Source: Candidatus Micrarchaeota archaeon
Lineage (GTDB): Archaea; Micrarchaeota; Micrarchaeia; Anstonellales; Bilamarchaeaceae
Length of the DNA stretch: 64,000 bases
Assembly (NCBI GenBank): GCA_040754495.1
Contig: JBFMCO010000022.1
Coordinates: forward strand, 24,908 to 88,907
Direction: 5' to 3'
Positions 25,051-62,680 of this stretch are shown here, piece by piece (the stretch's first letter is position 1; each line of letters starts with the position of its first letter). A program made the position numbers and the translations under genes. The notes under the pieces were generated by a model. That model was not told the DNA's origin. It did not search any database and saw only the letters and a list, made by a program, of their open reading frames with translations.

Positions 25051-25080
25051 AGACCCTAGACCGGAAACTGGAAACCGCAA
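25051..25080. repeat. 7-nt periodic repeat array
   Basis: AGACCCT AGACCGG AAACTGG AAACCGC between convergent genes. Confidence 0.55.
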
Positions 25081-25102
25081 GTCATACCTGAGGCCCGGGA
25101 GT

Positions 25103-28100
25103 TCACAGGAAATCGGACAGCCCCATCTGCTTGACCTTGTCGTCCTCGAATATGCTCTTTATCTCCCGCTCGACAAGCACCAGCCTCTGCTTCAGGTAGG
25201 AGGGAAGGTCGTAGCGGTCGCATATGTCGCGGGATATCTCCAGGTATTTCTCGATTCCGCCCTTGTTGATTGTGAGGAGGAGGTTGCCCCCGCAGCGCGC
25301 GCACTTGCCCGCCAAGGGCACCCTGCGGAAGATGGTGTTGCACGAGACGCAGCGGAAGGTCTGCCTTGAGAAGGAGCGCAGGTTGCCGTAGAGGTCCGGG
25401 ATGAAATGGCTCAGTATCAGGCGCTCGGCTGCATCGCGCCTATCAACCGGGCGGAGGCGGCCCTGGAGCCTGAACTGTATGTCTATCTTGTCCGGTATGG
25501 ACTGCAGCTCCACGTAAGCCGTCCGTATGTTCCCGACATCAAGCGTGCCGCCCGGATGCGTGATGGGAAGCTCGTACTGCTCGTCGGTCCCCAGGACGTC
25601 CTTCACGGTCTTGAGCTTCACCTCGCCCGGCGGCGCGAAGCGCTCCGCGGCCTCGTAGAACTCGAGGGGGTAGCGCGAGACGATTTCGATGCAGTGCGCC
25701 TCGTCGTCCACCTCCTTGGGGTTTATCTCTATGGAGAGCACGAGGGGCGCGTCCATGGTGCCCCCGCGCTTCTCGTCGAGGAACCTGCGGGAGAAGTTGA
25801 TGAGGGCGTCCATCAGGAGCATCACGCAGTCCTCGTCGCCGTCGCACCGAATCGTAAAGACCTGGTTGTTCAGAAGAACATTCTTTTCTTCCAGGGATTG
25901 GCCTTCCACATCGAGGCAGTATGCCGGAACTCCGTCTGTGAATTTCTCAATCGACCTGACCTTATCGAAAATATAGTCGCTTTGAGGCACGACCGTGAAC
26001 AGCTTATTCTGGTATTTGATAAATCGCGCATCGCTCGACAGACCGTTTCTTCTCAGTTCGGACATTCGTTCTGCCTTATGCTTCACAGAGGGCGCGCAGA
26101 TATTTGCAAAGGCATATAGGTCGGTGCCATAAAGACTAATGAATCTCTGCGAAAGCAAACGCGGGGTTTTTCCGAGCTCTTTATACCTTTCAAGGACCTT
26201 TTTGCCAGGCAAACGCGGTTTGGTTTTGCCATACCTGCAGAAGATTCCAAATCGCAAAAGCAGCGTGCCGAAATCCTCCAAAAGATTTTGTGAAACGGAG
26301 TAGAAGTGCATTCTCGGGGGGGTGGCGATTACACTTCCATCTCCGTCAAAATAAGCAGAAATAAAGGATTTGACAAGACGGTCAGGCAGTGAAAAGACGA
26401 GATTTGGAACCCGTTTCGTGTAGGCATTTGAGCCGGTCTTCAAGACTTTATCAAACAGAAGGTGGATTATCCGGCTGCACATTGTTATCTGAGTGCCGTT
26501 CTCGCCAAGATAAGGGTTCGTCATAAAAACGCTTTTGATGGCGGCAATAAGCCGGTTCTGCATTATTTTATTGCAAACCCTGAAGCTGACCTGATAACAC
26601 GAAGGGCTTCTCCGTGCATACCCCTCTGAGACGAAGTAGCCGAGAATGAGCATCAGGTCCTCATCTATTGGAATTCTTACCGGCAGCCCCAGGTTATCTC
26701 TCTTCATGGCAATTTTTGCATCCATGGGCAAATCCTCAAAATTGCACACCCCCTCTTCCACAAGGATTTCGAAATGGGAGAGTGGAACGCGTCCATACCA
26801 CCTGCTCGGAGTCCGTCTCTCGATTTTGTTGAGCGGCAGGATTCTGAGCAGCAAATCGCGATGATTATAGAATATTTTCTTGAAAAAATCCTTCGAGCGA
26901 AGTATTATCGCTTCTTTTTCTTCCTTTTTTAGTGGAGATAGGGCCTTTGCAAGATTGAGCACGCGGGAGTCGTCTATCGTGTGCGGATTGAATTTTATGC
27001 AAACTGGCAGATCGGAGCCTTCAGTCATATCTTTTGCCTGAACTGCGCTAAGCGCCCCTTTGTTGAGGCAAAGAATATTATGGTCGGGAGTCACGGTAAT
27101 CTCCCGGTGGGTGGTTGTCGTAAGCTTAATCCATTTATCGGGAGCCTTTGCTCTGATGAAGCATTTGATTTTTTTACGGATTGTTTTGTGGGATTGGAGG
27201 TCTATTCCGAATGAGTAAAGAGTTCCGGGAACTTCCACTTTTTCTGTATAAGCATCAAGCCGCTTGACCCTGTCGGGGTATTTGGCAAACATTTCTTCGG
27301 TAACATCGCCCAGTGCCCTTTTGATATATTTTTTCTCGTGCTCATCAAATATGATAATCTCGGTTGCCGGATGGAAGCAGTTCCTTCTCTTCGCCGTGTG
27401 GAAATACGGGTGGCCGTAGCCGACGTTGGCCTTGTTGAAGCCCACGATGCGGCACAGGACGCCGGCGCTCGTGTGCGGCGAGAGCCCGACTGCCAGGTGG
27501 CCTATCAGGTCGTCCTTCGACTTCACGTTGTAGAAGGGCTTCATGCCGTAGAGGTTGATTAGCATGTCGTCGATGAAATCCGCCACACGCATGAAGTACG
27601 CGGCGCCGTTCTCGGAGAGGACGATGTCCTGGTGCCGCAGCGCCAGCGTCTGGGAGCCGCTCTCGAGGGGCTTGCCAAGATAATCCACGGCATAACCGAG
27701 CGCCCTGGCCCTATCGAGGCTTATGCCCACCTCGTCCGGCGTGAAATGCGTGAGCGGGATGTCTGTCGCGTCGAAGCGGGAGGTGCCGTCCCTGAAAACG
27801 TAGACGTCGTGCTTTGCGCGGAGGAAGCCCTTCTCCAGCCGCTCCGGGATGCGGATGGTGTTCGAGAGGCCCTTCACCCCCTTCACGTCTTCCGGGGAGC
27901 TCCCCACCCGGTCCTTCACGCGCTCGAAGAGCTCCATTATGTCTACGGGCCTGCGGTCGTAGGAGAGCGTCTTCATCTCGCAGTGGATTTCGTACTCGCA
28001 GATGCGGCCGCACTTCTGGCATATCCGCTCCTCGGCGGCCCTGCCGCCGCAGACGTCGCAGCGCCGGTAATAGCCGAGGCGGCGGCATTTTTCGCATCGC

Positions 28101-29983
28101 AGCCTGGCGAGCTCCAGGTTGATCGTCTTCTCGCCCTCGGCACCCCTGAGGGCACGGTGGACCTTGCTCAGGCTCCGGTTCTTGAACGAGCCGGTCGGGA
28201 AGAGGACGTGCGGCGAGCCGTCCATCTTCCTTTCCTTTGCCTTCTCCGGCCTGCCCATGCGCGCTCCTATATAAGTAGGAGCCTTGGCCTTGATGCGTAT
28301 CTGGGAGGCCGCGTTCACGATTTCGAGCGCGCCCTTTGCGGCATCGTATGCCGCTTCGAAGCGGGAGAGGTCTATGCGGCCATCCGAAAGCGCCCCCAGC
28401 GAAGAGAGGAGCGCGTACGCGTCGTCGCCGTCAAGGATGACATTCCCGTCGTGCACCCTGTGCTCCGCGAGGAGCTCCTCCAGGGCCCTTTTCGCAGGCG
28501 ATGGCGGAAGGACGAGCGAGCGGAGCCTGCCATCGTGCATCTCCAGCTTCCCGCCCTTGAGCCAGTCCGCCAGGGATTTGAGCTGGTCCGGCGACAGGTC
28601 GTGCCAGTGGAATGTGTAGCGCGGATGTAGAGGCACGCCATGCGTCCGCGAGAATGCAAAAAGCCCCGGCGCGTCCATGGCGGCAGGAGGCTGGACTCCC
28701 TTGGATTCGAGCTCGCGCTCCCACCACTCTTCGCAGTAGCCGGATGGCATGAGGGGGTGGTTGGACTTGTGGAAATCGCCGTACGTGCAGAGCAGGTCGC
28801 CCAGGAAAAGGATTTCTTCCACCTCGTCCTTGATGCCGTACGACTCCTCCAGCGTCCGCACCTTCATCACGCGCCCGCTTTTGAGCTTCACGACCGGCGG
28901 CTCGAGCCCCTCGTGCGCCGCGACCACGCAGCCCTTCCCGGGGCGCTCTATCTTCATGTGAGTCCCGTAGGCCAGGAAGTTGTCGAGCAGTATCATCGTG
29001 GCAGGATGGACGTCCTTGCCCATGAGGCAGGTGGTCTTGCTCCTGCCGTAGCGCAACCGGAACCCGCCCTTGGCCGAAGGGTGGCTGAAGACCGGCCTCC
29101 CCGCTACAAGCCCTTCCATGTAGGTCCAGTCCGGCTTCACCTCGACCTTGTCCGCCTTTTTCTTTATCTTGATGATTTTCTCGAGCCAGTCCCAGCCCAG
29201 CTTGAGCTTCTTGGCGTATTTGAGGAGCTTGGCGGCCTTCGCTGCCACGCCCTCGCACATGACGAGGGGCACGCCGCCGCGCACGCGGTCCGTCTCCACT
29301 CCCGGCACCCCGCGGTAGGTCGAGACCTCGATTTCCTCGGTCGGGTCGCCGTCTATGCAGACCGGGCAGTTGGATGCTATCACGCGCACGTCGTCCTCCG
29401 GCGGCATGTACTGGAGGTGGGTTACGCGCGTCTCGTATGTCGTTACCTCCTCGTAGTATCTTGCAATCTGGGAGTCCGTGGCGCGGTAGTCCCCCACGCT
29501 GCATACGCGGCGCGCGATGTCGGCAAGCACCAGGCTGAGGGCGGCCGCAGTGCCTCCTGCGCTCCGGATGGGGCCCGCATAATAGACCGCCACGTAGTCG
29601 CTCCCGTCCGGGTTGCGCTTTATCCTCACTTTCGCTATGCCCTCGGTCGGGGCGACCAGGACGCCCTCGGTGAGTATGCCGAGGCCCGTCCTCACCGCCT
29701 GTTCGATGAGAAGCTCCTTGGACGCCTTCATCAGCTCGCCGCCGGCGATTTTGCGTGCGATTTCGAACGCGATGTCCTCGCGGCCCATGCCACCTTTTTC
29801 CATGTCCCGGATGAGATCTGCCACTCCGGGGGGGCCGACGATACCCTCCACGCGGGCGGCGATGTCCTTGGCTATCTTGACTTCTATGTCGTCGCTCGGG
29901 TCATAGCCGAGCCTCCTTGCCTCTGAGGCGACGGCGTATGCCTTCTGCAGCCCCTCGCGGAGCGTCTCCACATACTCTCCCAT
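25103..29983 (-). CDS. polC: DNA polymerase D large subunit DP2 with intein
   Basis: GPIRSAGGT, FRLRYGRS, YIGARMGRPEKA, FRDGTSRFD, HTAKRRN|intein|CDGDED and the C-terminal Zn-finger FSRQTFRC motifs. Confidence 0.98.
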   Translation of the reverse strand: MGEYVETLREGLQKAYAVASEARRLGYDPSDDIEVKIAKDIAARVEGIVGPPGVADLIRDMEKGGMGREDIAFEIARKIAGGELMKASKELLIEQAVRTGLGILTEGVLVAPTEGIAKVRIKRNPDGSDYVAVYYAGPIRSAGGTAAALSLVLADIARRVCSVGDYRATDSQIARYYEEVTTYETRVTHLQYMPPEDDVRVIASNCPVCIDGDPTEEIEVSTYRGVPGVETDRVRGGVPLVMCEGVAAKAAKLLKYAKKLKLGWDWLEKIIKIKKKADKVEVKPDWTYMEGLVAGRPVFSHPSAKGGFRLRYGRSKTTCLMGKDVHPATMILLDNFLAYGTHMKIERPGKGCVVAAHEGLEPPVVKLKSGRVMKVRTLEESYGIKDEVEEILFLGDLLCTYGDFHKSNHPLMPSGYCEEWWERELESKGVQPPAAMDAPGLFAFSRTHGVPLHPRYTFHWHDLSPDQLKSLADWLKGGKLEMHDGRLRSLVLPPSPAKRALEELLAEHRVHDGNVILDGDDAYALLSSLGALSDGRIDLSRFEAAYDAAKGALEIVNAASQIRIKAKAPTYIGARMGRPEKAKERKMDGSPHVLFPTGSFKNRSLSKVHRALRGAEGEKTINLELARLRCEKCRRLGYYRRCDVCGGRAAEERICQKCGRICEYEIHCEMKTLSYDRRPVDIMELFERVKDRVGSSPEDVKGVKGLSNTIRIPERLEKGFLRAKHDVYVFRDGTSRFDATDIPLTHFTPDEVGISLDRARALGYAVDYLGKPLESGSQTLALRHQDIVLSENGAAYFMRVADFIDDMLINLYGMKPFYNVKSKDDLIGHLAVGLSPHTSAGVLCRIVGFNKANVGYGHPYFHTAKRRNCFHPATEIIIFDEHEKKYIKRALGDVTEEMFAKYPDRVKRLDAYTEKVEVPGTLYSFGIDLQSHKTIRKKIKCFIRAKAPDKWIKLTTTTHREITVTPDHNILCLNKGALSAVQAKDMTEGSDLPVCIKFNPHTIDDSRVLNLAKALSPLKKEEKEAIILRSKDFFKKIFYNHRDLLLRILPLNKIERRTPSRWYGRVPLSHFEILVEEGVCNFEDLPMDAKIAMKRDNLGLPVRIPIDEDLMLILGYFVSEGYARRSPSCYQVSFRVCNKIMQNRLIAAIKSVFMTNPYLGENGTQITMCSRIIHLLFDKVLKTGSNAYTKRVPNLVFSLPDRLVKSFISAYFDGDGSVIATPPRMHFYSVSQNLLEDFGTLLLRFGIFCRYGKTKPRLPGKKVLERYKELGKTPRLLSQRFISLYGTDLYAFANICAPSVKHKAERMSELRRNGLSSDARFIKYQNKLFTVVPQSDYIFDKVRSIEKFTDGVPAYCLDVEGQSLEEKNVLLNNQVFTIRCDGDEDCVMLLMDALINFSRRFLDEKRGGTMDAPLVLSIEINPKEVDDEAHCIEIVSRYPLEFYEAAERFAPPGEVKLKTVKDVLGTDEQYELPITHPGGTLDVGNIRTAYVELQSIPDKIDIQFRLQGRLRPVDRRDAAERLILSHFIPDLYGNLRSFSRQTFRCVSCNTIFRRVPLAGKCARCGGNLLLTINKGGIEKYLEISRDICDRYDLPSYLKQRLVLVEREIKSIFEDDKVKQMGLSDFL
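25847..27379 (-). mobile_element. LAGLIDADG homing-endonuclease intein (511 aa) in the DP2 KRRN/CDGDED site; ends in Arg
   Basis: Begins CFHPATE after KRRN. Block B ITVTPDH; LAGLIDADG motifs LGYFVSEG and ISAYFDGDG. Ends YCLDVE...NNQVFTIR before CDGDED. Visibly AT-richer than the host gene. Confidence 0.93.
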
Positions 29984-30070
29984 CAGTCCGCCCTGGAAAA
30001 TTCGAATACCAATTTAAACATGAGCAAATTAAATAACTCTGCTCTTCCGGCAGAGGCCGGAGGCTCTTTC

Positions 30071-30285
30071 GCCGAGGTAGCTCAGTCGGCTAGAGTGCTC
30101 GACTCATAGGTAAAGTCCGATGAGTGATGAGGTCTGAGACCGATGATATTAGCGCACTCAACTGAGACATCGAGAGGTCGGGGATTCGAAACGGTCTCCT
30201 GCAGCCCGCATCCGGCATCCAGAACCCGAAACGGCTGGTTGCTGGCGACTGGTTGCTGGAAACCGCGAACCTTCCCCCCTCGGCA
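30071..30285 (+). tRNA. tRNA-Met(CAU), elongator, with two introns: 37/38 (30109-30168) and 59/60 (30191-30271)
   Basis: Acceptor GCCGAGG/CCTCGGC+A; anticodon stem CTCGA/TCGAG; T-stem GGGGA/TCCCC. Both introns have BHB geometry (central helices CTCA/TGAG and TTCG/CGAA). Confidence 0.9.
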
Positions 30286-30295
30286 TTTTTCCACT

Positions 30296-30323
30296 GGTTT
30301 ACAGTTTCCGGTCCCGGGTTTTC
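30296..30323. repeat. 7-nt periodic repeat array
   Basis: GGTTTAC AGTTTCC GGTCCCG GGTTTTC just downstream of tRNA-Met. Confidence 0.6.
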
Positions 30324-30430
30324 ACTTGGGAAAAATGCCGGCCCTTGGAGCCGCAGCTCCAAGCGGACGGCAAGCAAAACATATATACGCTTTTTCTCCG
30401 ATTGACATCCCGCGACCAAAAGGTGAGACT

Positions 30431-30670
30431 ATGGAACTTCGGAAATGCGAAAGCTGCGGCATGGCTATGGTAAGGCTCTCTGACTTCGGCGGCATGAAGA
30501 ACGACAACAGGTACTGCAAGCACTGCGCTTACGACAACGGCGACCTGCGCCCCAGGCACGAGGTGCGCGAGGGGATGATACTCTACTACATGAAGACCAA
30601 GGGGAAGGACCGCAGGAGCGCGGAGGAGTACGTTGACGAAGTGATGGCCGGCCAGCCCGCCTGGCAGTAG
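30431..30670 (+). CDS. Putative zinc-ribbon domain protein
   Basis: CESCGM...YCKHC motif followed by a helical tail. Confidence 0.8.
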   Translation: MELRKCESCGMAMVRLSDFGGMKNDNRYCKHCAYDNGDLRPRHEVREGMILYYMKTKGKDRRSAEEYVDEVMAGQPAWQ

Positions 30671-30759
30671 TGGCAGAGAGAAAAGTTTTCTGTCGCAAGG
30701 ATTCCGGCGTGAAAACAACCATTTATAATTTGTTGATGCGTTTAGCGTAAGGGATTCCC

Positions 30760-30933
30760 ATGACAGACGAAATCAAATTCCCGGCTCCTGAGGGCGGATT
30801 GGCCGTGCCGGCCGAGGTGCTTTCGGAAGCCCAGAAAATAAAGAAAGGCATCTGCCCTTCGTGCGACGGCAGCCTCGTCTTCCAGGAAGGCTGCAAGGTC
30901 TGCTATTCCTGCGGCTGGGGCGGCTGCGAGTAA
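30760..30933 (+). CDS. 57-aa stand-alone zinc ribbon resembling the class II RNR (NrdJ) C-terminus
   Basis: Hand translation gives ...CPSCDGSLVFQEGCKVCYSCGWGGCE*; below the ORF-track length cutoff. Confidence 0.8.
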   Translation: MTDEIKFPAPEGGLAVPAEVLSEAQKIKKGICPSCDGSLVFQEGCKVCYSCGWGGCE

Positions 30934-30997
30934 TTCTTGAAAAATCCCTTCGGGATTTTTATTGTTTTCCCTGCTATCCAGTTCCGATGGTGATTGC

Positions 30998-31291
30998 ATG
31001 GGGCTCAAGGAACTGAAGCCGGACATAGTGAAGGCGTATTTCGATTTCAGCAAGCTCGTCGACAAGACTGACAAGCTCAGCCAGAAGGAGAAGGAGCTGA
31101 TAGCGGTCGGCGTCTCGCATGCACTGCTTTGCAGCTTCTGCATAGAGGACCATGTGCAGAAGGCCAGGGTAGCTGGCGCGACTGAAGAGGAGATTGCCGA
31201 GGCGATACTGGTAGCCGCGAAGGTAAGGGCAGGCTCCGCGCTTACATACGCCCAGAAATATGCCTTCAGGAACGAGCCGCCCAAAGGCTAA
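30998..31291 (+). CDS. Carboxymuconolactone decarboxylase / AhpD-like protein
   Basis: KEKELIAVGVS...CSFCIEDH...GATEEEIAEAI motif. Confidence 0.9.
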   Translation: MGLKELKPDIVKAYFDFSKLVDKTDKLSQKEKELIAVGVSHALLCSFCIEDHVQKARVAGATEEEIAEAILVAAKVRAGSALTYAQKYAFRNEPPKG

Positions 31292-31321
31292 TTAATCCCT
31301 TTTACCAAGTATTTTTTCATT

Positions 31322-31490
31322 GGGCTCGTAGCTCAGCATCTTGAGGGAAAAGCGCCTAACAATGGGTTTTGGCCCAGCTTTTCCCAAAAGCTGGAAGCAG
31401 AGCACTCGCCTTGCAGTTTCCTCGAAACCGGAAACGGGAAACAGGAGACCGGAACGCGAGGGGCCGGGGGTGCGAGTCCCCCCGAGTCCA
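31322..31490 (+). tRNA. tRNA-Ala(UGC) with a 37/38 intron (31416-31454) and ~56 nt of D-loop intron sequence (within 31338-31398)
   Basis: Acceptor GGGCTCG/CGAGTCC+A with G3-U70; D-stem GCTC/GAGC; anticodon stem CTCGC/GCGAG; TGC at 31412-31414; T-stem GGGGG/CCCCC. Confidence 0.85.
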
Positions 31491-31560
31491 TTTTCTCATT
31501 TTGAACCATATGGAAACACTTAAAAAGCGTAATATACACAATACCCCTAGAGTGGTACTT

Positions 31561-32262
31561 ATGAAGCTTGTTCACGAGCAGGACCGCAAGAAGGACGAGG
31601 ACAAGGGCATCCCGAAGGGGAAGGCGCCGCTTCTCGAGGAGATAGGCGGCACCGGGGGATTTTCCAGGAAGGGCTTTGTTCTGGCGGCAGCCGCTGCAGC
31701 CATTATCGCGGGCAAGTCCGGCTGCACTTACGAAATCGGCGGCGTGCCCGTCCCTGAAGAGGAGGACGGGGGCAACGATGCCGGAGGGGCGGATGCCGAT
31801 GTAGACGGAGGCGAGGTCACCGACGGCGGGCATGACGAGGACGCGGGCATGGACGGCGGTCCGGACGCGGATGTCGACGGCGGAGAGACGGATGGCGGCG
31901 TCACGGACGGCGGAGAGACCGACGGTGGCGTAGAAGACGGCGGGACCGATGGCGGCGCTGATGCCGGCGGCCCGCTCTGCGCGGGAGTATACAACGAAGT
32001 TGTCGTCAACGGACCTTTCGACAGGAACGTTGATACGGAAGTCGGCGGGTACTACTTCAGATACCTGTCCTACACGACGACCACGGTCACGATGGACATC
32101 CGCTGCGGCTCGGACAGCTCGTTGGTCGAGGCCGCCCATGTGTTCACTGTCGGCGTGGAGGGCACGATAAACGTCCCTGCCGACAGCAAGAGGATACGCG
32201 TCACCGTGAACAGCAAGAACACGTTCACCGCGAACTGCGATGTAACGGTGGAGAACCTGTAG
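31561..32262 (+). CDS. DGG-repeat lipoprotein-like surface protein (family B, copy 1)
   Basis: Charged N-terminus, hydrophobic stretch ending in G-C, acidic DGG/DAG repeats, and a conserved ~95-aa C-terminal domain (GPLCxGVYNE...KRIRVT...VTVENL). Confidence 0.85.
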   Translation: MKLVHEQDRKKDEDKGIPKGKAPLLEEIGGTGGFSRKGFVLAAAAAAIIAGKSGCTYEIGGVPVPEEEDGGNDAGGADADVDGGEVTDGGHDEDAGMDGGPDADVDGGETDGGVTDGGETDGGVEDGGTDGGADAGGPLCAGVYNEVVVNGPFDRNVDTEVGGYYFRYLSYTTTTVTMDIRCGSDSSLVEAAHVFTVGVEGTINVPADSKRIRVTVNSKNTFTANCDVTVENL

Positions 32263-32271
32263 GGTGATTTA

Positions 32272-32865: not shown

Positions 32866-32975
32866 CCTACCCTTATCCCTTTATTCTTATCGCTCCATGC
32901 TTCTTATGCGGTCATGATGAGAAGAGGTATTCCTGAATGATGATGGGACGTCAGAGCTGAACCGCACAGATTTCC

Positions 32976-33500: not shown

Positions 33501-33620
33501 CCTGATGGGAACGTATATAAAGAGGGAAAAACATAATTATCTGCTTAAAAAAGGGACAAAGTTCGCAAGAAATCTGTTTCTGCGGCCCTTTTTGATACAA
33601 AATTACAGGGAGGTGGGGAG

Positions 33621-34076: not shown

Positions 34077-34079
34077 GGC

Positions 34080-35015: not shown

Positions 35016-35055
35016 AGGGATATATGTTCTACCATTTATTTAAAAAGGCTTCCGC

Positions 35056-36012: not shown

Positions 36013-36082
36013 TCGGGACTTTATTAGACTGGAAAGGTATTTAAGTTATTATATATGTCGCGTCTTGGATAATAACGCGTTG

Positions 36083-36145
36083 CACCCGGAAAACAGAACT
36101 CGGGCCCGGGGCACTGAACCGGAAACCGGCTGCCGGGGGCTGGAT
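36083..36145. repeat. 7-nt periodic repeat array (GGAAACN family)
   Basis: GCACCCG GAAAACA GAACTCG ... GAACCG GAAACCG GCTGCCG. Confidence 0.65.
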
Positions 36146-36321
36146 GCAGGAAAAAAATAGCGGGGGGTAGATTTGAACCCCCAGCCTTTTTATAATCGGA
36201 ATCCTGGCCCCGGAGAAAAAGGCTAGGGTTAACCCAAAAACCAGTTTCTCGGAACCCTGAACCCGAAACGGGAAACCGGAAACAGGATGCAGGAAAAAAA
36301 TAGCGGGGGGTAGATTTGAAC
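36142..36321. repeat. 37-bp direct repeat (36142-36178 and 36285-36321) duplicating the tRNA-iMet 3' end
   Basis: GGATGCAGGAAAAAAATAGCGGGGGGTAGATTTGAAC occurs twice, 143 bp apart. Confidence 0.9.
36243..36290. repeat. 7-nt periodic repeat array
   Basis: GGAACCC TGAACCC GAAACGG GAAACCG GAAACAG downstream of tRNA-iMet. Confidence 0.75.
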
Positions 36322-36405
36322 TACCGGTCCCTGGGTTATGAGCCCAGTGGGAACTCCAAGCTTCCCATAGGGCAAATTCTAGATGTTAGAATTTGTTACC
36401 CCGCT
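36301..36405 (-). tRNA. Initiator tRNA-Met(CAU) with a 30-nt intron at position 9/10 (36367-36396)
   Basis: A1-U72 acceptor AGCGGGG/CCCCGCT+A; three G-C pairs in the anticodon stem CTGGG/CCCAG; T-arm GGTAG-TTCAAAT-CTACC. BHB: GGGG/CCCT central helix and 9-bp inner stem CAAATTCTA/TAGAATTTG. Confidence 0.92.
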
Positions 36406-36546
36406 TTGCTTGGAGCACTTTAACCCAGATTGTCCTAACAGAAGTCAGAACGAGAATAATTAGCGGGCTAATGCTTTATAATGGTGATTGAAATTCAGGC
36501 GCTAGATGAAGTAAAAGAGAAAGAAGGAGAAAAGGGAGGAAGAAAC

Positions 36547-37137: not shown

Positions 37138-37911
37138 TTAGGATAAAGTAAAATAAATCCTCCTGTTGTCCTTCCCCTTGTTGTCGAGACGGAGTATGGC
37201 TATCCTGCCTACCTCCGCAAGGCTCCGCACGTGAGTCCCGCCGTCCGCCTGGACGTCTATGCCGGGAATCTCGACGATGCGAAGCTCGCTTATGGATGGC
37301 GGCAAAGCGCCTGCAAGCTTCACGACGCCAGGTATCTTCATCGCTTCCGCGCGCGGAAGAGTATAGACCTTGAGCGCTGCGCCGCTTGAGAGCGCGTCGT
37401 TCGCCTTCCGGACGATTTCCTCGAATTGCGGGCGGTCGAACGAAGCGAGGCTGAAGTCGAAGCGCGCCTTGTCCTCCTCGAGCTGATTTCCCGTAATCAG
37501 CACGCCGAGCTCCTTGTACATGGCAGCTCCGAGCACGTGCGCTGCCGTGTGCATGCGCATGAGCTTGTAGCGCCGCTCCCAGTCTATCACGCAGCGGACA
37601 TGGTCGCCGGCCCCGAGTTTCCAGTTCCCGGTTTCGTCTTTGGGTTCAGCGTCCAGAAGGTGGACGATTTGGCCGTCTTTCTTGAATACGTCCACGACAC
37701 TGAACACGGAACCGGGAGCGGGCGGCCCTGCGCCGGAGACCGGCTGCCCGCTGCCGGAAACCAGCGCGATGCTGCCCCGGTCGGCAGGCTGGCCGCCGCC
37801 CCTCGGATAGAACACGGTCCTGTCGAGGACGACCTCCTTGCCGCTCACCGACAGGACCTGCGCGGCGCACTCGCGCATGTAGCTGTCATCGAGATAAAGG
37901 GCCTGGCTCAT
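37138..37911 (-). CDS. alaX: Alanyl-tRNA editing protein AlaX (AlaX-M type) with repeat-derived insertions
   Basis: LYLDDSY, FYPRGGGQPAD, MRMHTAAH, DGGTHV and KGKDNRRIY motifs. Confidence 0.93.
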   Translation of the reverse strand: MSQALYLDDSYMRECAAQVLSVSGKEVVLDRTVFYPRGGGQPADRGSIALVSGSGQPVSGAGPPAPGSVFSVVDVFKKDGQIVHLLDAEPKDETGNWKLGAGDHVRCVIDWERRYKLMRMHTAAHVLGAAMYKELGVLITGNQLEEDKARFDFSLASFDRPQFEEIVRKANDALSSGAALKVYTLPRAEAMKIPGVVKLAGALPPSISELRIVEIPGIDVQADGGTHVRSLAEVGRIAILRLDNKGKDNRRIYFTLS

Positions 37912-51354: not shown

Positions 51355-51377
51355 GGATGGGTGCGGGTGCCATCTTT

Positions 51378-51950: not shown

Positions 51951-52039
51951 GGAAAGGGTACGCAGGGCGCATTTAATTGTTTTACGAAATGATTAGGCGA
52001 CGCCGGCAAGCGCAGGGAGCGCATACGCTCCATGGGGAG

Positions 52040-52369: not shown

Positions 52370-52421
52370 GCAATGCAGATGCCCGGGCGGGTTAATATTT
52401 CTTCGCTAAGTTGCCTATTGC

Positions 52422-55019: not shown

Positions 55020-55074
55020 GAAAATTAGTAAGGAGGTAAAAAAATAAAACTGCTCCTGCCCGGATGGGGCGGGA

Positions 55075-56568: not shown

Positions 56569-56668
56569 GGACTTACATTAACTAAAACACTTTAAAAACG
56601 TGTCGCTTGATGAGGTTGTCTGTTGCTGGGTAGGCCCATTTAAAATACTTTCGAACATAAAGTATAAC

Positions 56669-58795
56669 ATGCAAAAATCCGAGGACGGCAGCGACGGCTC
56701 CGGACGTCGCAAGAAGGACGCCCTCAGCGGCAAGTCGAGGATGGCCATCCCGCTCCGCAGCATGATGGCGAGCGAGGAGCCGGCGGTCGAGGGACTCGCC
56801 GCACAGCCCGACGCGATGCTGCAGGGCGCGCGCATCGACAAGACGCCGCAGGACTTCTACCTCGTCGAGGGCATACTCGGCGAAGGCGGCATGGGCAGGG
56901 TATACCGGGGCAGGATGATAAAGACCACCAAGCCGAAGAAGGGGAAAGAGGGAGAGGAGAAAGGGGCCAAGACCGTGATCAACAGGGAAGTCGCCATCAA
57001 GGTCATAAACTTCGATTCCGCGTTCGCGAACGCGGACCCTGCAAACATCGAGCAGACAAAGAAGATGATGTACGACCGCTTCCTGAGCGAGGTCGAGCTG
57101 GTCGCAAAGCTCAAGCACCCGAACATCGTGGATATTCTTGATTTCGGGGAGCTGGACGACGGGAAGCCTTTCTGCGTGATGGAGCTCCTGAAGGGGCAGG
57201 ACCTCGACCAGGTGATTGAGGCCGCAGGCATGCTTCCCTGGGATTTCACGAAGACGGTGGCGGTGCAGGTCTGCAAGGCCCTCGAGGCGGCGCATGGCTA
57301 CGAGGAGGACGGCGAGAAGAAGCCCATCATCCACCGCGACATCAAGCCGCTGAACATATTCCTCCTCCAGGACAAGGAAGGGGAGTGGGTGGTGAAGGTG
57401 CTGGATTTCGGCCTGGCAAAGCTGCTTGCGCCGAGCTCCAGCGAGCTCACGCTAAAGGGGGAAGGCGGGTTCGGCACGCCCGGCTACATGTCCCCGGAGC
57501 AGGCATGGGGCCTGACGATGGACGAGAGGACGGACATATACGCCGTCGGAGCGGTCTTATACCACATGCTGACCGGGACCACGCCCTTCACCTTCTATCT
57601 GGACAAGGCACGCGCTGACTTCCCGACTACTGACGAGTTCAATGCTTACCAGCACAACAAGTGGAACGAGTTCAAGGAGAAGCTCTGGAAGACCAAGCCC
57701 AAGACGGTTCGCGAGGTCGTGCCCGGCGCCGACGTTTCTGAGCAGGTCGAGGCTATAGTGATGAAGTGCCTCGCCAGCGACCCGAAGAATCGGTTCCAGA
57801 GCATCAAGGAGCTGAAGGACGCCATTACAGCCCTCAACGGGGAAAAGAACGCGAACGGGGCGGAGGAGCAGAAGATGCCGTCCGTTCCGGAAACAGAGCT
57901 TCCTTCGGTGATTATCAGCCCCGGGGAGCCCTACGCGAGAGTGGAGCCAACGGCACCGGCCCAGGACGTGCAGGCTGCCGAGGAGGACATGAAGACCGTG
58001 CCGAGGCAGGCCAAGCCCGAGGCCGGCGCAGATGAGGCGGCAGTGCAGGAGGCTGCGCAGTCTGCGGCCCAGCCCGAACCCGCCATGAGCGCGGAAGACG
58101 CAGCCAGGGTTCTGGAGCAGGCGGACCTTCCCGAGGCATCATCGCGGTACGAGAAGACAGAGATAGTCAGGATACGGGACCTCAAGCCAAAGGGCGCACG
58201 TACGGACGAAACGGCGGTGGATGTTGCAGCGCCCAAACGAAGGAGGCTTGCCAAGTTCATTGCCGCGGGCGCTGCTTTGGCCGTGCTCGGCGCAAGCGGG
58301 GCGTATATCGTGACAAGGGCTGGGAGCCATGAGAGCGAGCCGATTGCGCAACAGAGCGCGAAGCCCCCGGCCGCGAATCCGGGGCCGCCAAGGGCCAGGG
58401 ACCCCATTCCCGAGCCAGCGCGTACGGACATCGCTACACCGGCGCCGCCCGCGGCGGATGCCGCACCGGAGGCAGCAGTAGTGCAGGAGCATACGATTAC
58501 AATCAGGACAGGGGTTTCGGGAGTCCGCGTCATCAGGGATGGCGAAACGGCGTGCACTACAGCCAGGGACGGCAGCTGCGCGCTCACGATAGGGCATGGC
58601 AGCGAGCCGGTCGAGCTGAGGCTCGCCAGGCGCGGATACCAGGACGCCACCGCGAGCGTAGTCCCGGACCAGGACCGCACGGTTGATGCGTCGATGGAGC
58701 GCGCGCCGACAAAGGTGCAGGGCAGCACGCCGCAGCCCCACACGCCAAGGATAACGGACGAGGGCGACAGGCCGAGGATAAGGACAGAGGAATGA
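56669..58795 (+). CDS. Membrane Hanks-type Ser/Thr kinase with extracellular PEGA-like domain
   Basis: LGEGGMGRVY, VAIK, HRDIKPLN, DFGLAK, GTPGYMSPEQ, DIYAVG; TM helix; LARRGYQD segment. Confidence 0.93.
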   Translation: MQKSEDGSDGSGRRKKDALSGKSRMAIPLRSMMASEEPAVEGLAAQPDAMLQGARIDKTPQDFYLVEGILGEGGMGRVYRGRMIKTTKPKKGKEGEEKGAKTVINREVAIKVINFDSAFANADPANIEQTKKMMYDRFLSEVELVAKLKHPNIVDILDFGELDDGKPFCVMELLKGQDLDQVIEAAGMLPWDFTKTVAVQVCKALEAAHGYEEDGEKKPIIHRDIKPLNIFLLQDKEGEWVVKVLDFGLAKLLAPSSSELTLKGEGGFGTPGYMSPEQAWGLTMDERTDIYAVGAVLYHMLTGTTPFTFYLDKARADFPTTDEFNAYQHNKWNEFKEKLWKTKPKTVREVVPGADVSEQVEAIVMKCLASDPKNRFQSIKELKDAITALNGEKNANGAEEQKMPSVPETELPSVIISPGEPYARVEPTAPAQDVQAAEEDMKTVPRQAKPEAGADEAAVQEAAQSAAQPEPAMSAEDAARVLEQADLPEASSRYEKTEIVRIRDLKPKGARTDETAVDVAAPKRRRLAKFIAAGAALAVLGASGAYIVTRAGSHESEPIAQQSAKPPAANPGPPRARDPIPEPARTDIATPAPPAADAAPEAAVVQEHTITIRTGVSGVRVIRDGETACTTARDGSCALTIGHGSEPVELRLARRGYQDATASVVPDQDRTVDASMERAPTKVQGSTPQPHTPRITDEGDRPRIRTEE

Positions 58796-58796
58796 C

Positions 58797-60608
58797 ATGA
58801 GCGTCAAGAACAGCGGCGCGAAGCCTCCGGAAACAAGGGAAGCCCCGGTTTCAGGCACTTCTGTGAAGAAACAACAGCCGCTGCAGGAGGGGCCGGCAGG
58901 GAAAGCGCCCCTCGCCCCGCCGGTGCCGGAAAGCGATTTCAGCTCAGGAGAAGGCCAGACAGCGCAGAGAAAGGACACCCTCATCGGCACCAAGGTGGAC
59001 GGAAGGTACAAAATAGAGGAGCTGCTGGGGAGCGGCGGCTACGGAAAGGTGTATCTGGCCAAAGACGAGAAGCTGTTCGGAAACAAGGTGGCGCTCAAGA
59101 TGCTCTACCCGCCCGGAAAGGACGAGAACCCGATGGAGGTCCTTGAGAGGCTCAACCGCTTCGAGAGGGAGGCCCAGGTGGCGTCCAGCCTGAACCACCC
59201 CAACATAGTGAGGGTGACCGACTTCGGCAGGACCGAGGACAAGGCGCCGTACTGCGTGATGGAATTCGTGGAGGGCGGCTCGCTCCAGGATGAGATTTCC
59301 AGCGACCGGATGATGCCGCTCAGCAGGTTCTTCTCGATAGCTGTGCCGGTCTGCGATGCCCTGAACCTTGCGCACGAGAAAGGGATTATACACCGCGACC
59401 TGAAGCCGGCGAACATCCTCCTGACCGAGCCTAACGGCAGCGTCGTGCCGAAGATAAGCGATTTCGGGCTTGTGAAAGTCGTTGCGCCGCAAAAAAACGA
59501 AGGGGAGGCGACCCAGCTCACGCAGGTGGGCAGCATACTTGGGACTCCCGAGTACATGCCGCCAGAGCAGATAACTGGGAGGGTGATGGACGAGCCGGGC
59601 ATCGACATATACGCCATGGGCGTCACCATGTACCAGACGCTCTGCAAAAAAATCCCGTTCGAGGAGGCTTTCGACCGGGAGCGCAGGGGCGAGCTGCAGT
59701 TCATGGTCGTGCAGAAGATGGTCCAGAAAGAGAGGCCGAAATCCCCTTCCGAAATCCGCGGCGATATCCCGAAAGAGCTGAGCGACCTTATTATGGAGTG
59801 CCTCGAGAAAGACCCGCAGAAGCGCCCGCCTTCCATGAAAGCGATAAAGAGCTCGCTCGAGCGGTGCGCCCGCAAGCTCCAGGCAGCGCACACGCAGAAA
59901 AGGATGCAGGAGCCGGCCAGGGCCCAGGCACCAAAACCTGCCGCCCGCCCCGATGGGGATGCCGGGATGACGATGGTCATACCCCAGAATCCCGCGCCAA
60001 AGAGGCCCGGAAAGATGGTGGTGGCCGGCGCGATAGCCGGCGTGCTCGCGGCGGCAGGATTCGGCACAGTCATGCTTTCGGACTTGAGACAGAGCAGGGG
60101 GGACCGCATCAACGAATCGGCGCAGGCGCCGGATGCCTGGGTGGAGAGGGCGCCGGAGCCGCACAAAGCCCCGGAGCCGGCGCGCCCGGCCAGGAAAACG
60201 TTCCAGATTACGTTCGTGACAGAACCGGGAGGCGTCGAAGTGTCGGCAGGCGGGGAAACGTTCTGCACGACTTCCGGTGAGGGCGTATGCCAGAAAAGGG
60301 TCGAGGAGGGGGCGGAGCTGGAATTCGAGTTCAGGAAAGACGGCCACGTTGCAAAGCGTAAGGGGATTGTCCCTGACGCGGACATGGTCGTGAAGGTAGA
60401 GCTTGAACCTATAAGGAAGAAAAGCGAGCGCCAGCCGGCGAAGCTCGTGCCTCTGCCGCCCCGCGAGGGCCCTCCTGCGGCCAAGGCTGTACCCAAGGAA
60501 GAGCCGCGCGTGAAGCCCGCGGAAACCAAGCCCGAAAAGCACAGCCCGAGGATTACTGATGAGGGCGATGCGCCGAAGAAGCCAAGGATAACCGATGAGG
60601 GGGGCTAG
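58797..60608 (+). CDS. Membrane Hanks-type Ser/Thr kinase with extracellular PEGA-like domain
   Basis: LGSGGYGKVY, VALK, HRDLKPAN, DFGLVK, GTPEYMPPEQ, DIYAMG; TM helix; VTEPGGVEV...FRKDGH segment. Confidence 0.93.
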   Translation: MSVKNSGAKPPETREAPVSGTSVKKQQPLQEGPAGKAPLAPPVPESDFSSGEGQTAQRKDTLIGTKVDGRYKIEELLGSGGYGKVYLAKDEKLFGNKVALKMLYPPGKDENPMEVLERLNRFEREAQVASSLNHPNIVRVTDFGRTEDKAPYCVMEFVEGGSLQDEISSDRMMPLSRFFSIAVPVCDALNLAHEKGIIHRDLKPANILLTEPNGSVVPKISDFGLVKVVAPQKNEGEATQLTQVGSILGTPEYMPPEQITGRVMDEPGIDIYAMGVTMYQTLCKKIPFEEAFDRERRGELQFMVVQKMVQKERPKSPSEIRGDIPKELSDLIMECLEKDPQKRPPSMKAIKSSLERCARKLQAAHTQKRMQEPARAQAPKPAARPDGDAGMTMVIPQNPAPKRPGKMVVAGAIAGVLAAAGFGTVMLSDLRQSRGDRINESAQAPDAWVERAPEPHKAPEPARPARKTFQITFVTEPGGVEVSAGGETFCTTSGEGVCQKRVEEGAELEFEFRKDGHVAKRKGIVPDADMVVKVELEPIRKKSERQPAKLVPLPPREGPPAAKAVPKEEPRVKPAETKPEKHSPRITDEGDAPKKPRITDEGG

Positions 60609-60616
60609 GGGCCTCC

Positions 60617-60665
60617 GGTTTCCTGTTTCCGGTCTCCCGTTTGGGTTTTGCGATTTCTGGTTTGG
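60617..60665. repeat. 7-nt periodic repeat array (NGTTTCC orientation)
   Basis: GGTTTCC TGTTTCC GGTCTCC CGTTTGG GTTTTGC GATTTCT GGTTTGG directly after the kinase stop codon. Confidence 0.7.
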
Positions 60666-60801
60666 ATAAGGGAGGGGGAAAAAGGAAAATCAGGACCTCA
60701 GGGGGAGTCGACCTTGTCGCCTGGCGACAAGGTGCGCCTTGAAAGTGCCCTTTCAAGTGCGCTGAAAGAACCACCTGGGAATACATCAGAGGTTCTTTCT
60801 T

Positions 60802-61653
60802 TCACTGGCAGACGTGAGTCAGCTGGTTGCAGACCTCGCCCTGCACGCAGTCCGCGTTGTCGTCGCAGAAGCCGGTCTTGGCGCTGCAGAAGTGCTCGCT
60901 GTCGCACACCTGCCACGTGCCGCAGTCCGCGTTCGAGCCGCAGCGGTCCTTGGACGGGGTGCACCTGTGCGTCTTGTCGCTGCAGAACTCCCACGTGTTG
61001 CATTCGTTGTCGCCGAGGCAGTAGCCCTGGCGCGCGATGCACTTCTTGGACGCGAGGTCGCACTTGGACCAGGCCTGGCAGTCCTCGTCGTTTATGCAGA
61101 AGCCGACCTTCGGGTTGCACAGGTGCGTCTTCACGTCGCAAGCCTGCCACGTCTCGCAGTCGCCGTCAAGCTCGCAGCGGCCTTCCAGTATGTAGCAGCG
61201 CTTGCTCACGATGTCGCATTTCTCCCATGAATCGCAGTCCGTGTCCTTGAGGCAGTATCCCGGAGCCGGCCCGCACTGGTGCGTGGCCGGATTGCAGAAC
61301 TCGAAGACAGGGTCGCACTGGGAATCGGAATCGCAGAAGCCTGGCGAGGGCCTGCAGTGCTGGGTGGAGTCGCACACCTGCCAGCTCTCGCAGTTCGCAT
61401 TCGTGCGGCAGAAGCCCTCCTGATATACGCAAAGGTGCGTCTTGGCGATGTCGCACACTGTCATGTTGTCCTTCGCCTTGCACGTGTCGTCGGTCTCGCA
61501 GTAGCCAGGGAGGGTGGCGCATGTGCCGCCCGTGGTGTTGCAGAACTGCCACGACTTGCACTGCGTGTTGTCCTTGCACGACGAGGCGCCCCTCCCGCCG
61601 CATCCGGCGATGAGGAGGGCCACAACGATAAGTCCGAATAAGAGAAGCTTCAT
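60802..61653 (-). CDS. Cys-rich repeat lipoprotein
   Basis: MKLLLFGLIVVALLIAG-C, then about twelve ~20-aa units of C..D.DC..W..C....H.C...G. Confidence 0.88.
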   Translation of the reverse strand: MKLLLFGLIVVALLIAGCGGRGASSCKDNTQCKSWQFCNTTGGTCATLPGYCETDDTCKAKDNMTVCDIAKTHLCVYQEGFCRTNANCESWQVCDSTQHCRPSPGFCDSDSQCDPVFEFCNPATHQCGPAPGYCLKDTDCDSWEKCDIVSKRCYILEGRCELDGDCETWQACDVKTHLCNPKVGFCINDEDCQAWSKCDLASKKCIARQGYCLGDNECNTWEFCSDKTHRCTPSKDRCGSNADCGTWQVCDSEHFCSAKTGFCDDNADCVQGEVCNQLTHVCQ

Positions 61654-61676
61654 GGGGGAGTATTGGATTGAATGAT

Positions 61677-62342
61677 TTATAAGGTTTGCAGGAGGGCCGG
61701 GAGCTCCCCTACATCCCGTATGGAGAACTCCGCCGATGTAGGGATATTGGCGTGTTTCCCGGAAATGAGCCTCACGGTCCTGATGCCGACCGCGCGGGCC
61801 GGGGCGATGTCCGTATCCTCGCGGTCGCCGACCATGAGGCAGGTTTCGGGTTTCGCGTTCAGGGTTTTGAGTATCTTCTGGTAGAAGCCTTCGCCCTTGT
61901 CCTCCCCGAGTTCCTCGGACACGAACACTTCGTCGAAATACAGGGCAAGCCGCAGGCGGATGAGCTTGTCCCACTGCTTTATCGAGTTGCCCTGCGTCGC
62001 GACGAAGAGCCGGTAGCCGCGCTCGCGCAGGGTCATGAGGGCGAGGGGTACCCTCGGGAAAGGCGCAATCGAGGTTTTCGTGTCATGGTAGGCGGCTACG
62101 GCCGCGGCCACGTACCGGGCCGGGCTCGTCTGGCCGAGCTCCAGGCAAAGCTCGTCGAAATGATGCGGGTAGTTGGAGCCCTTGCGCTCTATTATGGTTT
62201 TGAGTTTTGAGTTAAGGGTTTCGTGATCGGCCGGAAGGCCCATGCTTATCATGGCGTTCAGCGCGTTCTTCCTGGCAAGCGCCGAGAACTCCGTGGATGG
62301 GAAGAGGGTATCGTCTATGTCGAAAAGGAGGTGGCTCACCAT
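61677..62342 (-). CDS. HAD-superfamily hydrolase
   Basis: LLFDIDDTL, K at GEDK, and MVGDREDTDI motifs. Confidence 0.92.
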   Translation of the reverse strand: MVSHLLFDIDDTLFPSTEFSALARKNALNAMISMGLPADHETLNSKLKTIIERKGSNYPHHFDELCLELGQTSPARYVAAAVAAYHDTKTSIAPFPRVPLALMTLRERGYRLFVATQGNSIKQWDKLIRLRLALYFDEVFVSEELGEDKGEGFYQKILKTLNAKPETCLMVGDREDTDIAPARAVGIRTVRLISGKHANIPTSAEFSIRDVGELPALLQTL

Positions 62343-62369
62343 GGCTAATAGATTGGGGAAGAGGGAATA

Positions 62370-62680
62370 AAATGCTACGGGACAGGCGGTTCAGGAAAGC
62401 TCCGGGGATAACACCTGTGCTCGGTGGTTTTCGGTCTTCAGTTTCCAGTTTCGTTTTCATCGAAACCGGAAACAGGCAACCGGAAACCCCGAATGATGGC
62501 AGTTTATGTCTGGGAAAGTCCGGATGTACTGGTTCAGGAAAGCTCCGGGGATAACACCTGTGCTCGGTGGTTTTCGGTCTTCAGTTTCCAGTCTCGTTTT
62601 CATCGAAACCGGAAACAGGCAACCGGAAACCCCTTATGATGGCAGTTTATGTCTGGGAAAGTCCGGAAATGCTACGGGAC
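62370..62680. repeat. Two 137-bp near-identical units (62388-62524, 62531-62667) flanked by a 14-bp direct repeat
   Basis: The units differ at about 3 nt and each holds an inverted heptamer hairpin; AAATGCTACGGGAC occurs at 62370-62383 and 62667-62680. Confidence 0.9.

Follow-up and report, generated by a model that had tools for sequence, protein, structure and literature searches.

The genome of a Candidatus Micrarchaeota archaeon carries a dispersed family of tandem 7-nt repeats, with the motif GGAAACN on one strand and NGTTTCC on the other, which is found in spacers, transfer RNA (tRNA) introns and trailers, a miniature inverted-repeat transposable element (MITE) and protein-coding genes. 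The stretch under study, called the window here, is 64,000 nt long (assembly GCA_040754495.1, contig JBFMCO010000022.1, positions 24,908 to 88,907; C22:24908-88907). An earlier reading of its letters alone (the sequence-only reading) had proposed a spreading micro-repeat that is tolerated in tRNAs and offers a route for the de novo birth of tRNA introns. The interpretation that we favor, with a probability of about 0.6, is that the arrays are a family-specific dispersed heptamer repeat behaving as selfish or neutral DNA. Comparison with related genomes indicates that single lineages gain new arrays, at the level of DNA and at many sites unrelated to one another, and that arrays change by whole units; selection filters them, as they are rare in coding DNA. 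In tRNA genes, the same comparison indicates that the heptamers colonize, enlarge and replace introns that were already there.

The heptamer unit and its abundance

The genome under study (1.63 Mb in 72 contigs, 59.5% G+C, 80% complete) is referred to below as G000, and other G numbers denote comparison genomes. The window contains GAAACNNGAAAC 10 times, where 100 dinucleotide shuffles lead one to expect 0.07. Genome-wide, pairs of GAAAC on the same strand number 100, 92 and 52 at spacings of 7, 14 and 21 nt and ~2-4 at other spacings, which makes these peaks 25- to 50-fold over background; control pentamers gave no comparable peaks at these spacings genome-wide. The motif written backwards had 0 matches in the G000 genome against 53 for the true motif, and under a stricter detector it formed 0 arrays against 79. 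Tandem Repeats Finder also reported a period of 7 on the window. The dispersed 7-nt periodic family claimed by the sequence-only reading is thus borne out by the periodicity scan, the shuffles and the reversed-motif controls, and the motif frequency is not that expected at random. The window excess, the reversed-motif result and the spacing peaks leave a negligible probability that the family is a product of chance or an artefact of composition in a GC-rich genome, an explanation for which one can cite the short or degenerate state of some of the arrays first listed (25064-25075, 30296-30323 and 36083-36145). The array coordinates given earlier hold but vary in quality: beside these weaker ones, clear arrays lie at 36237-36297, 60618-60664, 62427-62487 and 62570-62630, and those at 31424-31449, 37617-37635 and 61843-61875 were missing from the earlier list.

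A chain search of the whole genome found 132 arrays at 119 loci on 40 or more contigs. The unit consensus is S-G-A-A-A-C-N, with C (60%), T (18%), A (11%) or G (11%) at position 7, and GGAAACC is the most frequent unit; arrays are called A-type or T-type according to whether they read GGAAACC or GGTTTCC. Array sizes have a sharp mode at four units (61 of the 132), and six or more units are present in only 16 arrays. The units carry GG only and so fall short of the four runs of at least three G that define a G-quadruplex. A higher-order period of 14 or 21 nt, as would come from rolling-circle copying, was ruled out by the unit identities at lags of one, two and three units (0.68, 0.69 and 0.65). 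We found no published description of this heptamer family in the literature.

Arrays arise in single lineages, often at unit-like sequence

The alaX gene (37138-37911, minus strand) contains two heptamer-made in-frame inserts, of 21 nt and 42 nt, that are specific to G000, which confirms the in-frame arrays reported in this gene as insertions relative to its orthologs. The 21-nt insert (37618-37638, minus strand) consists of three units (GAC GAA ACC GGG AAC TGG AAA) and encodes DETGNWK; among the 16 other genus orthologs aligned at this site, only G018 has heptamers, in a 15-nt insert of its own. The 42-nt insert (37711-37752, minus strand) consists of six degenerate T-type units and encodes SGQPVSGAGPPAPG. 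At this second site relatives have only TCCGG, and G006 has an independent 15-nt heptamer insert. A metagenome scan with alaX for variants at strain level returned nothing closer than 68% identity.

When further coding arrays were compared with five relatives, two of three proved to be inserts specific to G000. The array at C53 30069 was ruled out as an insert, since it is conserved coding sequence (NWKL) joined by a deletion. At three of four coding insert sites the relatives hold proto-units, namely GAAACCG or CGGGAAG, TCCGG, and, in G048, GAAACC..GAAACC. The lineage-specific inserts and the proto-units in relatives together imply that arrays arise in situ, often at pre-existing unit-like sequence. 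Outside coding DNA, the 2-3-unit array GGTTTCCAGTTTCCGG at 25061-25078 (minus strand), which has only two exact units (25064-25075) and lies 25 nt 3' of the stop codon of the DNA polymerase D (PolD) DP2 gene (25103-29983, minus strand), is absent at the alignable position in G048, the closest relative. Lineage-specific arrays at orthologous sites (tRNA-Ala 37/38, alaX, two further coding sequences and the DP2 trailer) agree with the earlier proposal of a spreading micro-repeat resembling short tandemly repeated repetitive (STRR) or repetitive extragenic palindromic (REP) sequences. Changes in unit number are also seen between orthologous arrays: the array in the tRNA-Met trailer has 7 units in G000 and 5 in G022, and the tRNA-Ser introns of G044 (82 nt) and G006 (89 nt) differ in length by a whole unit.

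One protein loop (L244; G000 C32:9066-10181) has heptamer-like inserts of equal length and differing sequence in G000 (PKPETGN) and in G054 (NAAQDAGG, from GGATGCC, GGAGGCC and GGAGACT units); the loop is without inserts in G048, G022 and G044. This loop and the alaX sites suggest recurrent hot spots of insertion.

The array load is uneven between genomes. Within the genus, GGAAACNGGAAAC occurs 53 times in G000, 35 in G010, 25 in G044, 15 in G006, 10 in each of G012 and G022, 8 in G003 and 6 in G048, and 0-2 times in many others (0 in G011 and G050), so that even sister genomes differ widely (G000 and G048; G006 and G011 or G050). A genome tree from 9 markers (2,184 columns) groups G000 with G048 and G010; their sister group comprises G054 with (G017,G047) and (G044,G022). 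Over 401 genomes of the phylum, a three-unit pattern was found in 30 of the 76 genomes of the host family, spread over 13 genera, and outside the family in one genome each of the neighboring family f11 and of f17. It is lacking in ~300 genomes from other families; the control with the reversed motif had 2 matches in the 401 genomes. The highest load, 40 matches to the three-unit pattern, is that of G114 (same family, genus g17); the f11 genome, G034, has chiefly the variant GAAACCC.

Selection on arrays in coding DNA

Genes were modeled with a crude in-house scorer of open reading frames (ORFs) based on codon usage, which gave 1,436 genes and 87% coverage. By these models, non-coding DNA (221 kb, 13.6% of the genome) contains 81 arrays and coding DNA (1.41 Mb) at most 51, a density at least 11-fold higher in the former. 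Deep in long ORFs there are 26 A-sense arrays against two T-sense arrays, and one of these two is actually the tRNA-Trp intron. As 7 shares no factor with 3, the same hydrophilic heptapeptide is read from (GGAAACC)3 in each of the three frames, whereas the opposite strand encodes G-F-R-F-P-V-S. Coding arrays are nearly all in the orientation that encodes the hydrophilic E-T-G-N-x-K-P/L, and give recurrent peptides such as ETGNRKL, ETGNGKQ and ETGNWKL. To judge from the predicted frames, this orientation bias is a clear footprint of selection on random insertions.

Arrays in spacers have no preference for convergent, divergent or codirectional gene pairs, and their strand relative to protein genes is balanced (37 versus 44). 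The same balance, seen genome-wide at the ends of protein genes, rules out a general role of T-type arrays as multi-U terminators.

Heptamers in tRNA introns

tRNA genes were mapped by three methods (intron-aware ARAGORN, a T-arm/acceptor scan and Rfam), which in G000 gave a set of ~33-35 genes, possibly incomplete, the majority of them interrupted and many 100-300 nt long. In the window, default ARAGORN detected no tRNA, Rfam recovers only part of tRNA-Met, and intron-aware ARAGORN miscalls tRNA-Ala as Val(aac). We compared three tRNAs, Ala, Ser(UGA) and Trp, over 40 genomes of the genus.

The tRNA-Ala(UGC) gene (31322-31490, plus strand) is 169 nt long; its 72-nt mature sequence is interrupted by ~58 nt of intron(s) in the D-loop and by an intron of 39 nt at position 37/38. 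The exons are defined by orthologs without introns, 72 nt long and adjoining the same PolD DP2 gene, in at least 12 genomes of the genus. The 37/38 intron (31416-31454, plus strand) is built of heptamers (G-TTTCCTC-GAAACCG-GAAACGG-GAAACAG-GAGACCG-GAA), and excision of 31416-31454 leaves exons that match the 72-nt orthologs in G046, G050, G024 and others. According to the computed fold and a parse by hand, the intron fits the hBHBh' form of the bulge-helix-bulge (BHB) motif, with the anticodon stem, a central 4-bp helix CUUG/CCGG in which one pair is a U.C mismatch, two 3-nt bulges (CA|G and AA|C), and an outer 6-bp helix UUUCCU/AGGAGA. In this fold the CCGG of a heptamer junction pairs with CUUG of the anticodon loop to form the central helix. 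The orthologs and the BHB fit thus uphold the heptamer-built anticodon intron that had been read from the sequence.

G006, which belongs to a different clade, also has a 39-nt heptamer intron at tRNA-Ala 37/38; it is 72% identical to that of G000, and its pairs are kept through one-sided and compensatory changes. At the same position, G048, G022, G017 and G047 have a ~75-80-nt intron family unrelated to heptamers, G044 has no intron, G054 has a 75-nt pure heptamer hairpin and G010 has a 124-nt intron that is partly heptamer. On this comparison of orthologs, an intron at Ala 37/38 predates the heptamer version of G000.

At Ser(UGA) 37/38, G000 has a 76-nt heptamer hairpin intron in which a T-type arm is followed by an A-type arm. 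This intron has heptamer homologs of 82 nt in G044 and 89 nt in G006, and G010 and G003 have related introns. Other intron families, at least four in number, occupy the site in G022, G047, G051, G017, G054, G021, G050, G020, G015, G045 and G013, and seven genomes are intron-free there. The G044 (L185) and G006 (L186) introns have the same order of variant units and 86% identity in the 5' arm, yet the two genomes stand in different, well-supported clades, and G022, the sister of G044, has an unrelated Ser intron. This likeness suggests lateral transfer or repeated replacement. In the D-loop of tRNA-Trp, ten relatives have a ~20-nt mini-hairpin intron and five have none; in G000 (84 nt) and G045 a long heptamer hairpin takes the place of the mini-intron. 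The same D-loop site of tRNA-Arg is likewise occupied by different intron families.

The D-loop intron of tRNA-Ala (31337-31395) contains a module, GTTTTGGnCC...CTTTTCCCAAAAG...GG, that is also found in introns of tRNA-Leu(UAA) and tRNA-Arg(UCG) (G000 C22:18606-18775 and C24:229-408). This second, non-heptamer intron family, spread over several tRNAs, also occurs in G006, G044, G021 and G048.

A tRNA-splicing endonuclease of 391 aa is encoded in the genome and matches the epsilon2 enzyme of ARMAN-2 (PDB 4fz2) over its full length (E = 1e-132); this enzyme and the intein-bearing PolD DP2 gene both agree with a host of micrarchaeal type. Epsilon2 EndA has a broad substrate range (PMC3239211, PMC3488258), and in ARMAN-2 Micrarchaeota it cuts multiple non-canonical BHB introns of tRNAs (PMC3239211, PMC3488258, PMC12397907). 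As in ARMAN-2, many tRNA genes here have one to three introns in canonical and D-loop positions, there are intron families common to different tRNAs, and EndA is of the epsilon2 type. Unlike in the known micrarchaeal introns, the interiors are built of a repeat that is far commoner outside tRNA genes, which provides a visible outside source for intron sequence. That the heptamers are tolerated in tRNAs through BHB splicing, as the sequence-only reading supposed, is plausible in view of the tRNA-Ala fit, with its one mismatch, and of the epsilon2 EndA; the splicing itself is predicted.

The further step of that reading, that heptamers bring tRNA introns into being, fared less well. In such a birth, a heptamer hairpin would enter an intron-free tRNA gene, fold with exon bases into a BHB and be spliced at once. 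Some introns are in fact made wholly of heptamers (Ala, 39 nt; Ser(UGA), 76 nt; G054 Ala, 75 nt), the CCGG junction of tRNA-Ala pairs with the anticodon loop, an epsilon2 EndA is encoded, and arrays do insert de novo into constrained sequence, i.e., coding DNA. However, at all three G000 sites that were compared in detail relatives have non-heptamer introns at the exact position (the ~75-80-nt Ala family in four genomes, the Ser families, and the Trp mini-intron in ten genomes), which means that in each case the intron predates the heptamers. A possible case of intron gain is tRNA-Arg(CCG) of G010, whose D-loop contains a heptamer hairpin of 66 nt; five sampled genomes, the nearest relatives of G010 not among them, have nothing there. 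Intron transposition has been described for Thermoproteales (Fujishima et al. 2010, as cited in PMC4090602), and a recent census of Asgard tRNA introns leaves the route of intron arrival open (bioRxiv 10.64898/2026.10.13.758758). Taken together, we consider de novo birth doubtful.

A stronger form of the idea, which we put forward tentatively and hold to be improbable, treats the heptamer hairpin as a minimal 'intron seed', enzyme-less and able to insert into any RNA gene, that would be spliceable at once by epsilon2 EndA. The period of 7 would then correspond to a 4-bp CCGG helix plus 3 nt, with CCGG completing a BHB with tRNA loops such as the CUUG of UGN anticodons, and the Ser(UGA) intron of G044 and G006 would reflect lateral spread.

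Hairpins, arm order and a MITE

Among the 112 arrays with at least three units, 31 are accompanied within 90 nt by a complementary partner that scores above the 99th percentile of a null, and the rest are solitary. The T-arm precedes the A-arm in all 31 partnered arrays, i.e., (GGTTTCC)n-loop-(GGAAACC)n, and the reverse order was not found. This is a true asymmetry, because an inverted repeat of either order reads alike on both strands. Easier self-folding of the T-type strand was ruled out as its cause, as nearest-neighbor DNA folds of pure T-type and pure A-type arrays have nearly equal energies (-7.0 versus -7.3 kcal/mol). That opposed arrays can form hairpins, as had been noted from the sequence, is supported by the computed fold of 62420-62495, with a predicted -37.7 kcal/mol and z = -6.7.

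This hairpin belongs to a 296-nt insertion (62385-62680, plus strand) flanked by 14-nt direct repeats, AAATGCTACGGGAC, at 62371 and 62667. The insertion consists of two 143-nt tandem units, each with a T-arm/A-arm hairpin (62427-62487 and 62570-62630) and a 35-nt module common to a small MITE family. The MITE is ~170 nt long and has three full copies (C4:12967-13142, C31:22816-22990 and C40:17771-17950), with imperfect terminal inverted repeats (CAGTAnnTCCGAAC..., CAGTA...TACTG), target duplications of 5-6 bp (GGGAAA, GCCCC and CCCTGC) and a 4+4-unit hairpin inside; the insertion in the window is a chimeric tandem relative of it. We identified no autonomous partner for the MITE.

The MITE raises the possibility that the arrays are transposon cargo, spread by MITEs or by a hairpin transposase of the RAYT or IS200-605 type, with the solitary arrays as decayed copies. 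Descent from one master element would account for the uniform four-unit size and the fixed hairpin order, the window copy has its flanking direct repeats, and the genome contains four TnpB genes. But clustering of flanks showed that ~90% of loci have nothing in common with other loci except the heptamers, so that terminal inverted repeats, target duplications and a conserved interior describe one family of three copies plus the window copy. The coding inserts consist of bare heptamers, 15-42 nt long, and have no target duplications, and none of the four TnpB genes has arrays nearby, which rules out a TnpB link. No reverse transcriptase, for which a search had been proposed, and no RAYT-type transposase was found: neither RVT_1 nor the Y1 family PF01797 had a match in the 80%-complete G000 assembly, and PF01797 did match control genomes. 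We rate transposon cargo as quite unlikely. A single long mobile element was ruled out by the same uniqueness of ~90% of array flanks.

How well a selfish repeat accounts for the arrays

Several observations weigh against selfish or neutral DNA as the full account. The four-unit peak is not predicted by fast slippage, and there is no broad, long-tailed distribution of sizes; the three MITE copies, 87-96% identical, have the same unit numbers, again unlike fast slippage; and the strict T-then-A order is not explained by simple slippage. Non-coding arrays in or within 120 nt of tRNA genes number 17 of 81 against 4.0 expected (P = 3.5e-7), and a purely random insertion model does not predict this ~4-fold clustering, which exceeds that in other non-coding DNA; inside tRNA genes there are 5 arrays against 1.9 expected (P = 0.04). 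The same motif over 13 genera could indicate a sequence-specific protein or a function. The crudeness of the gene models is a caveat for the split between coding and non-coding DNA, and we infer both the splicing and the mutational mechanism from sequence.

The four-unit mode, the fixed hairpin order, the tRNA clustering and the family-wide motif are left unexplained and keep a protein-driven or functional alternative alive. According to this alternative, the arrays would be sites for a family-specific protein or ribonucleoprotein that reads GAAAC every 7 nt, as TRAP-, Sm- or Csr-type proteins read spaced short motifs, or they would be processing or termination elements of pre-tRNA leaders and trailers. 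The retention of the core in the host family and its essential absence from the other families of the phylum are consistent with such a role, as are the strict hairpin order and the enrichment by tRNA genes, where eight of the nine trailer arrays are T-type on the tRNA sense strand (read by hand). A sharp four-unit preference is also a property of the GGGNATC repeats (PMC4692102). Yet individual arrays are not conserved between sister genomes, spacer arrays have neither a context preference nor a strand bias, arrays also occur in coding DNA, intron interiors and a MITE, and the GG tracts are too short for stable G-quadruplexes. We regard a functional motif as unlikely.

For the selfish or neutral repeat that we prefer, the following mechanism may be proposed. 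A site that already resembles one unit would seed an array, which would grow by slippage, by template switching or by ectopic copying of other arrays, with microhomology-seeded template switching or ectopic copying as the favored mutational route. The repeat family would be its own template, and the same motif could then persist across the whole family without a dedicated enzyme. Arrays at tRNA genes occupy introns, leaders and trailers, and the interior of an intron would be free to change provided that its ends complete a BHB. A heptamer hairpin would supply the outer helix and, in tRNA-Ala, the CCGG junction also the central helix, and the broad-specificity epsilon2 endonuclease would then excise the intron. 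Structure-only splicing by epsilon2 would make tRNA introns safe harbors for the repeat, which may occasionally create an intron.

Relation to known repeats

REP and BIME (bacterial interspersed mosaic) elements and REPINs are mobilized by RAYT (Y1) transposases. The heptamer arrays resemble them as short, mostly extragenic sequences at many loci that have no coding capacity and in part form imperfect palindromes. They differ in that only about a quarter of the arrays are palindromic, the interior is periodic, we saw no conserved head and found no Y1 transposase, and arrays also lie within genes. STRR sequences are dispersed heptameric simple-sequence repeats of cyanobacteria. The GGGNATC repeats of Xanthomonas and Nostoc form G-quadruplexes and have a four-unit preference (PMC4692102). 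The family described here has in common with STRR and GGGNATC repeats its tandem 7-nt units, its tens to hundreds of loci, its excess in non-coding DNA and its presence in particular lineages only. Unlike STRR, its host is archaeal and its unit is GGAAACN and not STRR1-3; unlike GGGNATC, it has GG in place of GGG, no convincing G-quadruplex and no positional preference relative to ORFs; and unlike both, it forms hairpins of fixed order and enters tRNA introns and protein loops.

The nearest parallel in a tRNA is the group I intron of Nostoc tRNA-Leu(UAA), whose P6b element contains degenerate heptanucleotide repeats (Costa et al. 2002, as described in PMC3488679). As far as that description goes, there too heptamers in a tRNA intron pair into a hairpin and vary from strain to strain by copy number and indels while the splicing structure is kept. 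The Nostoc intron is bacterial and self-splicing, whereas the introns here are predicted to be protein-spliced BHB introns, occur in several tRNAs and positions, and contain a repeat dispersed genome-wide. By analogy, the dispersed heptamers behave as an archaeal counterpart of cyanobacterial STRR and REP-like hairpins.

The initiator tRNA-Met locus and other features of the window

The sequence-only reading had placed a heptamer-bearing intron in the T-loop of tRNA-Met. This was not upheld: the initiator tRNA-Met gene (36301-36405, minus strand) has its own T-arm, acceptor 3' strand and discriminator, is followed by a T7 run, and is complete without the downstream copy of its 3' part. The arrays lie in a 143-nt trailer segment that ends in this duplicated fragment. 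The first, of ~7 T-type units, is at 36237-36297 (minus strand). The fragment, at 36142-36178 (minus strand), repeats 37 nt in direct orientation, from the T-loop through the acceptor 3' strand to the T7-CCTGCATCC trailer, with 100% identity and 143 nt downstream of the original; 3' of it are degenerate T-type units with one exact core (36083-36145, minus strand). The insert also holds a conserved hairpin, GCCTTTTT...AAAAAGGC. The orthologous insert of G022 (L072), with its 5 units, is in the same register, a difference of 14 nt; there the downstream copy has diverged and the first copy is intact. The insert is absent in G017, G054, G011 and others, and G017 runs directly into the sequence that lies beyond the insert in G022. 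This looks like an insertion that duplicated the 3' part of the tRNA, an attL/attR-like scar of an integrated element. The tandem unit at 62388 is, like the spacing at tRNA-Met, 143 nt long; the two sequences have only heptamers in common, and we treat the agreement as coincidence. tRNA-Met does have an intron specific to G000 and absent in all relatives seen, 30 nt long after position 9 (36376-36405, minus strand); it is a hairpin, AAATTCTA-ACATC-TAGAATTT, and is not made of heptamers.

Between the divergent DP2 and Zn-ribbon (Zn_ribbon_2 domain) genes there are degenerate units (30255-30323, plus strand), A-type at 30255-30272 and T-type at 30296-30323, the latter stretch forming the loop of an 11-bp inverted repeat, GGCATTTTTCC / GGAAAAATGCC; with one exact core, this is a weak member of the family. 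A six-unit T-type array (60614-60665, plus strand) begins 10 nt past the stop codon of a Ser/Thr kinase gene (58797-60608), and an A-sense array (61843-61875, minus strand) lies within a HAD-hydrolase gene (61677-62342, minus strand). The kinase gene is one of two neighboring Ser/Thr protein kinase genes (56600-60608, plus strand) that encode 731 and 603 aa. The DP2 gene is interrupted by an intein with a LAGLIDADG domain, which is present in only some members of the genus (frames of ~1,400-1,640 aa versus ~1,120-1,170 aa in others). A candidate C/D box small RNA at 32910-32963 (plus strand) has C, D', C' and D boxes and an Rfam match to snoPyro_CD of 28.8 bits, under the gathering score of 45.

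Implications for archaeal tRNA introns

The arrival and turnover of archaeal tRNA introns are an open question. In this genome, several tRNA introns are filled by the very repeat whose spread also reaches spacers, protein loops and a MITE, and the condition before its arrival can still be read from sister genomes, where the gene is intronless or has a mini-intron or an intron of another family. A specific mechanism behind the arrays is indicated by their four-unit size and strict hairpin order. If the heptamer hairpin were indeed an intron seed, it would offer a concrete route for the birth of archaeal tRNA introns, their exchange between lineages and their turnover. The family thus provides a natural system for studying how selfish repeat DNA may feed intron sequence, how structure-only splicing by epsilon2 EndA may buffer such invasions, and how repeat insertions make hydrophilic ETGNxKP-type peptide inserts in ~25 proteins.

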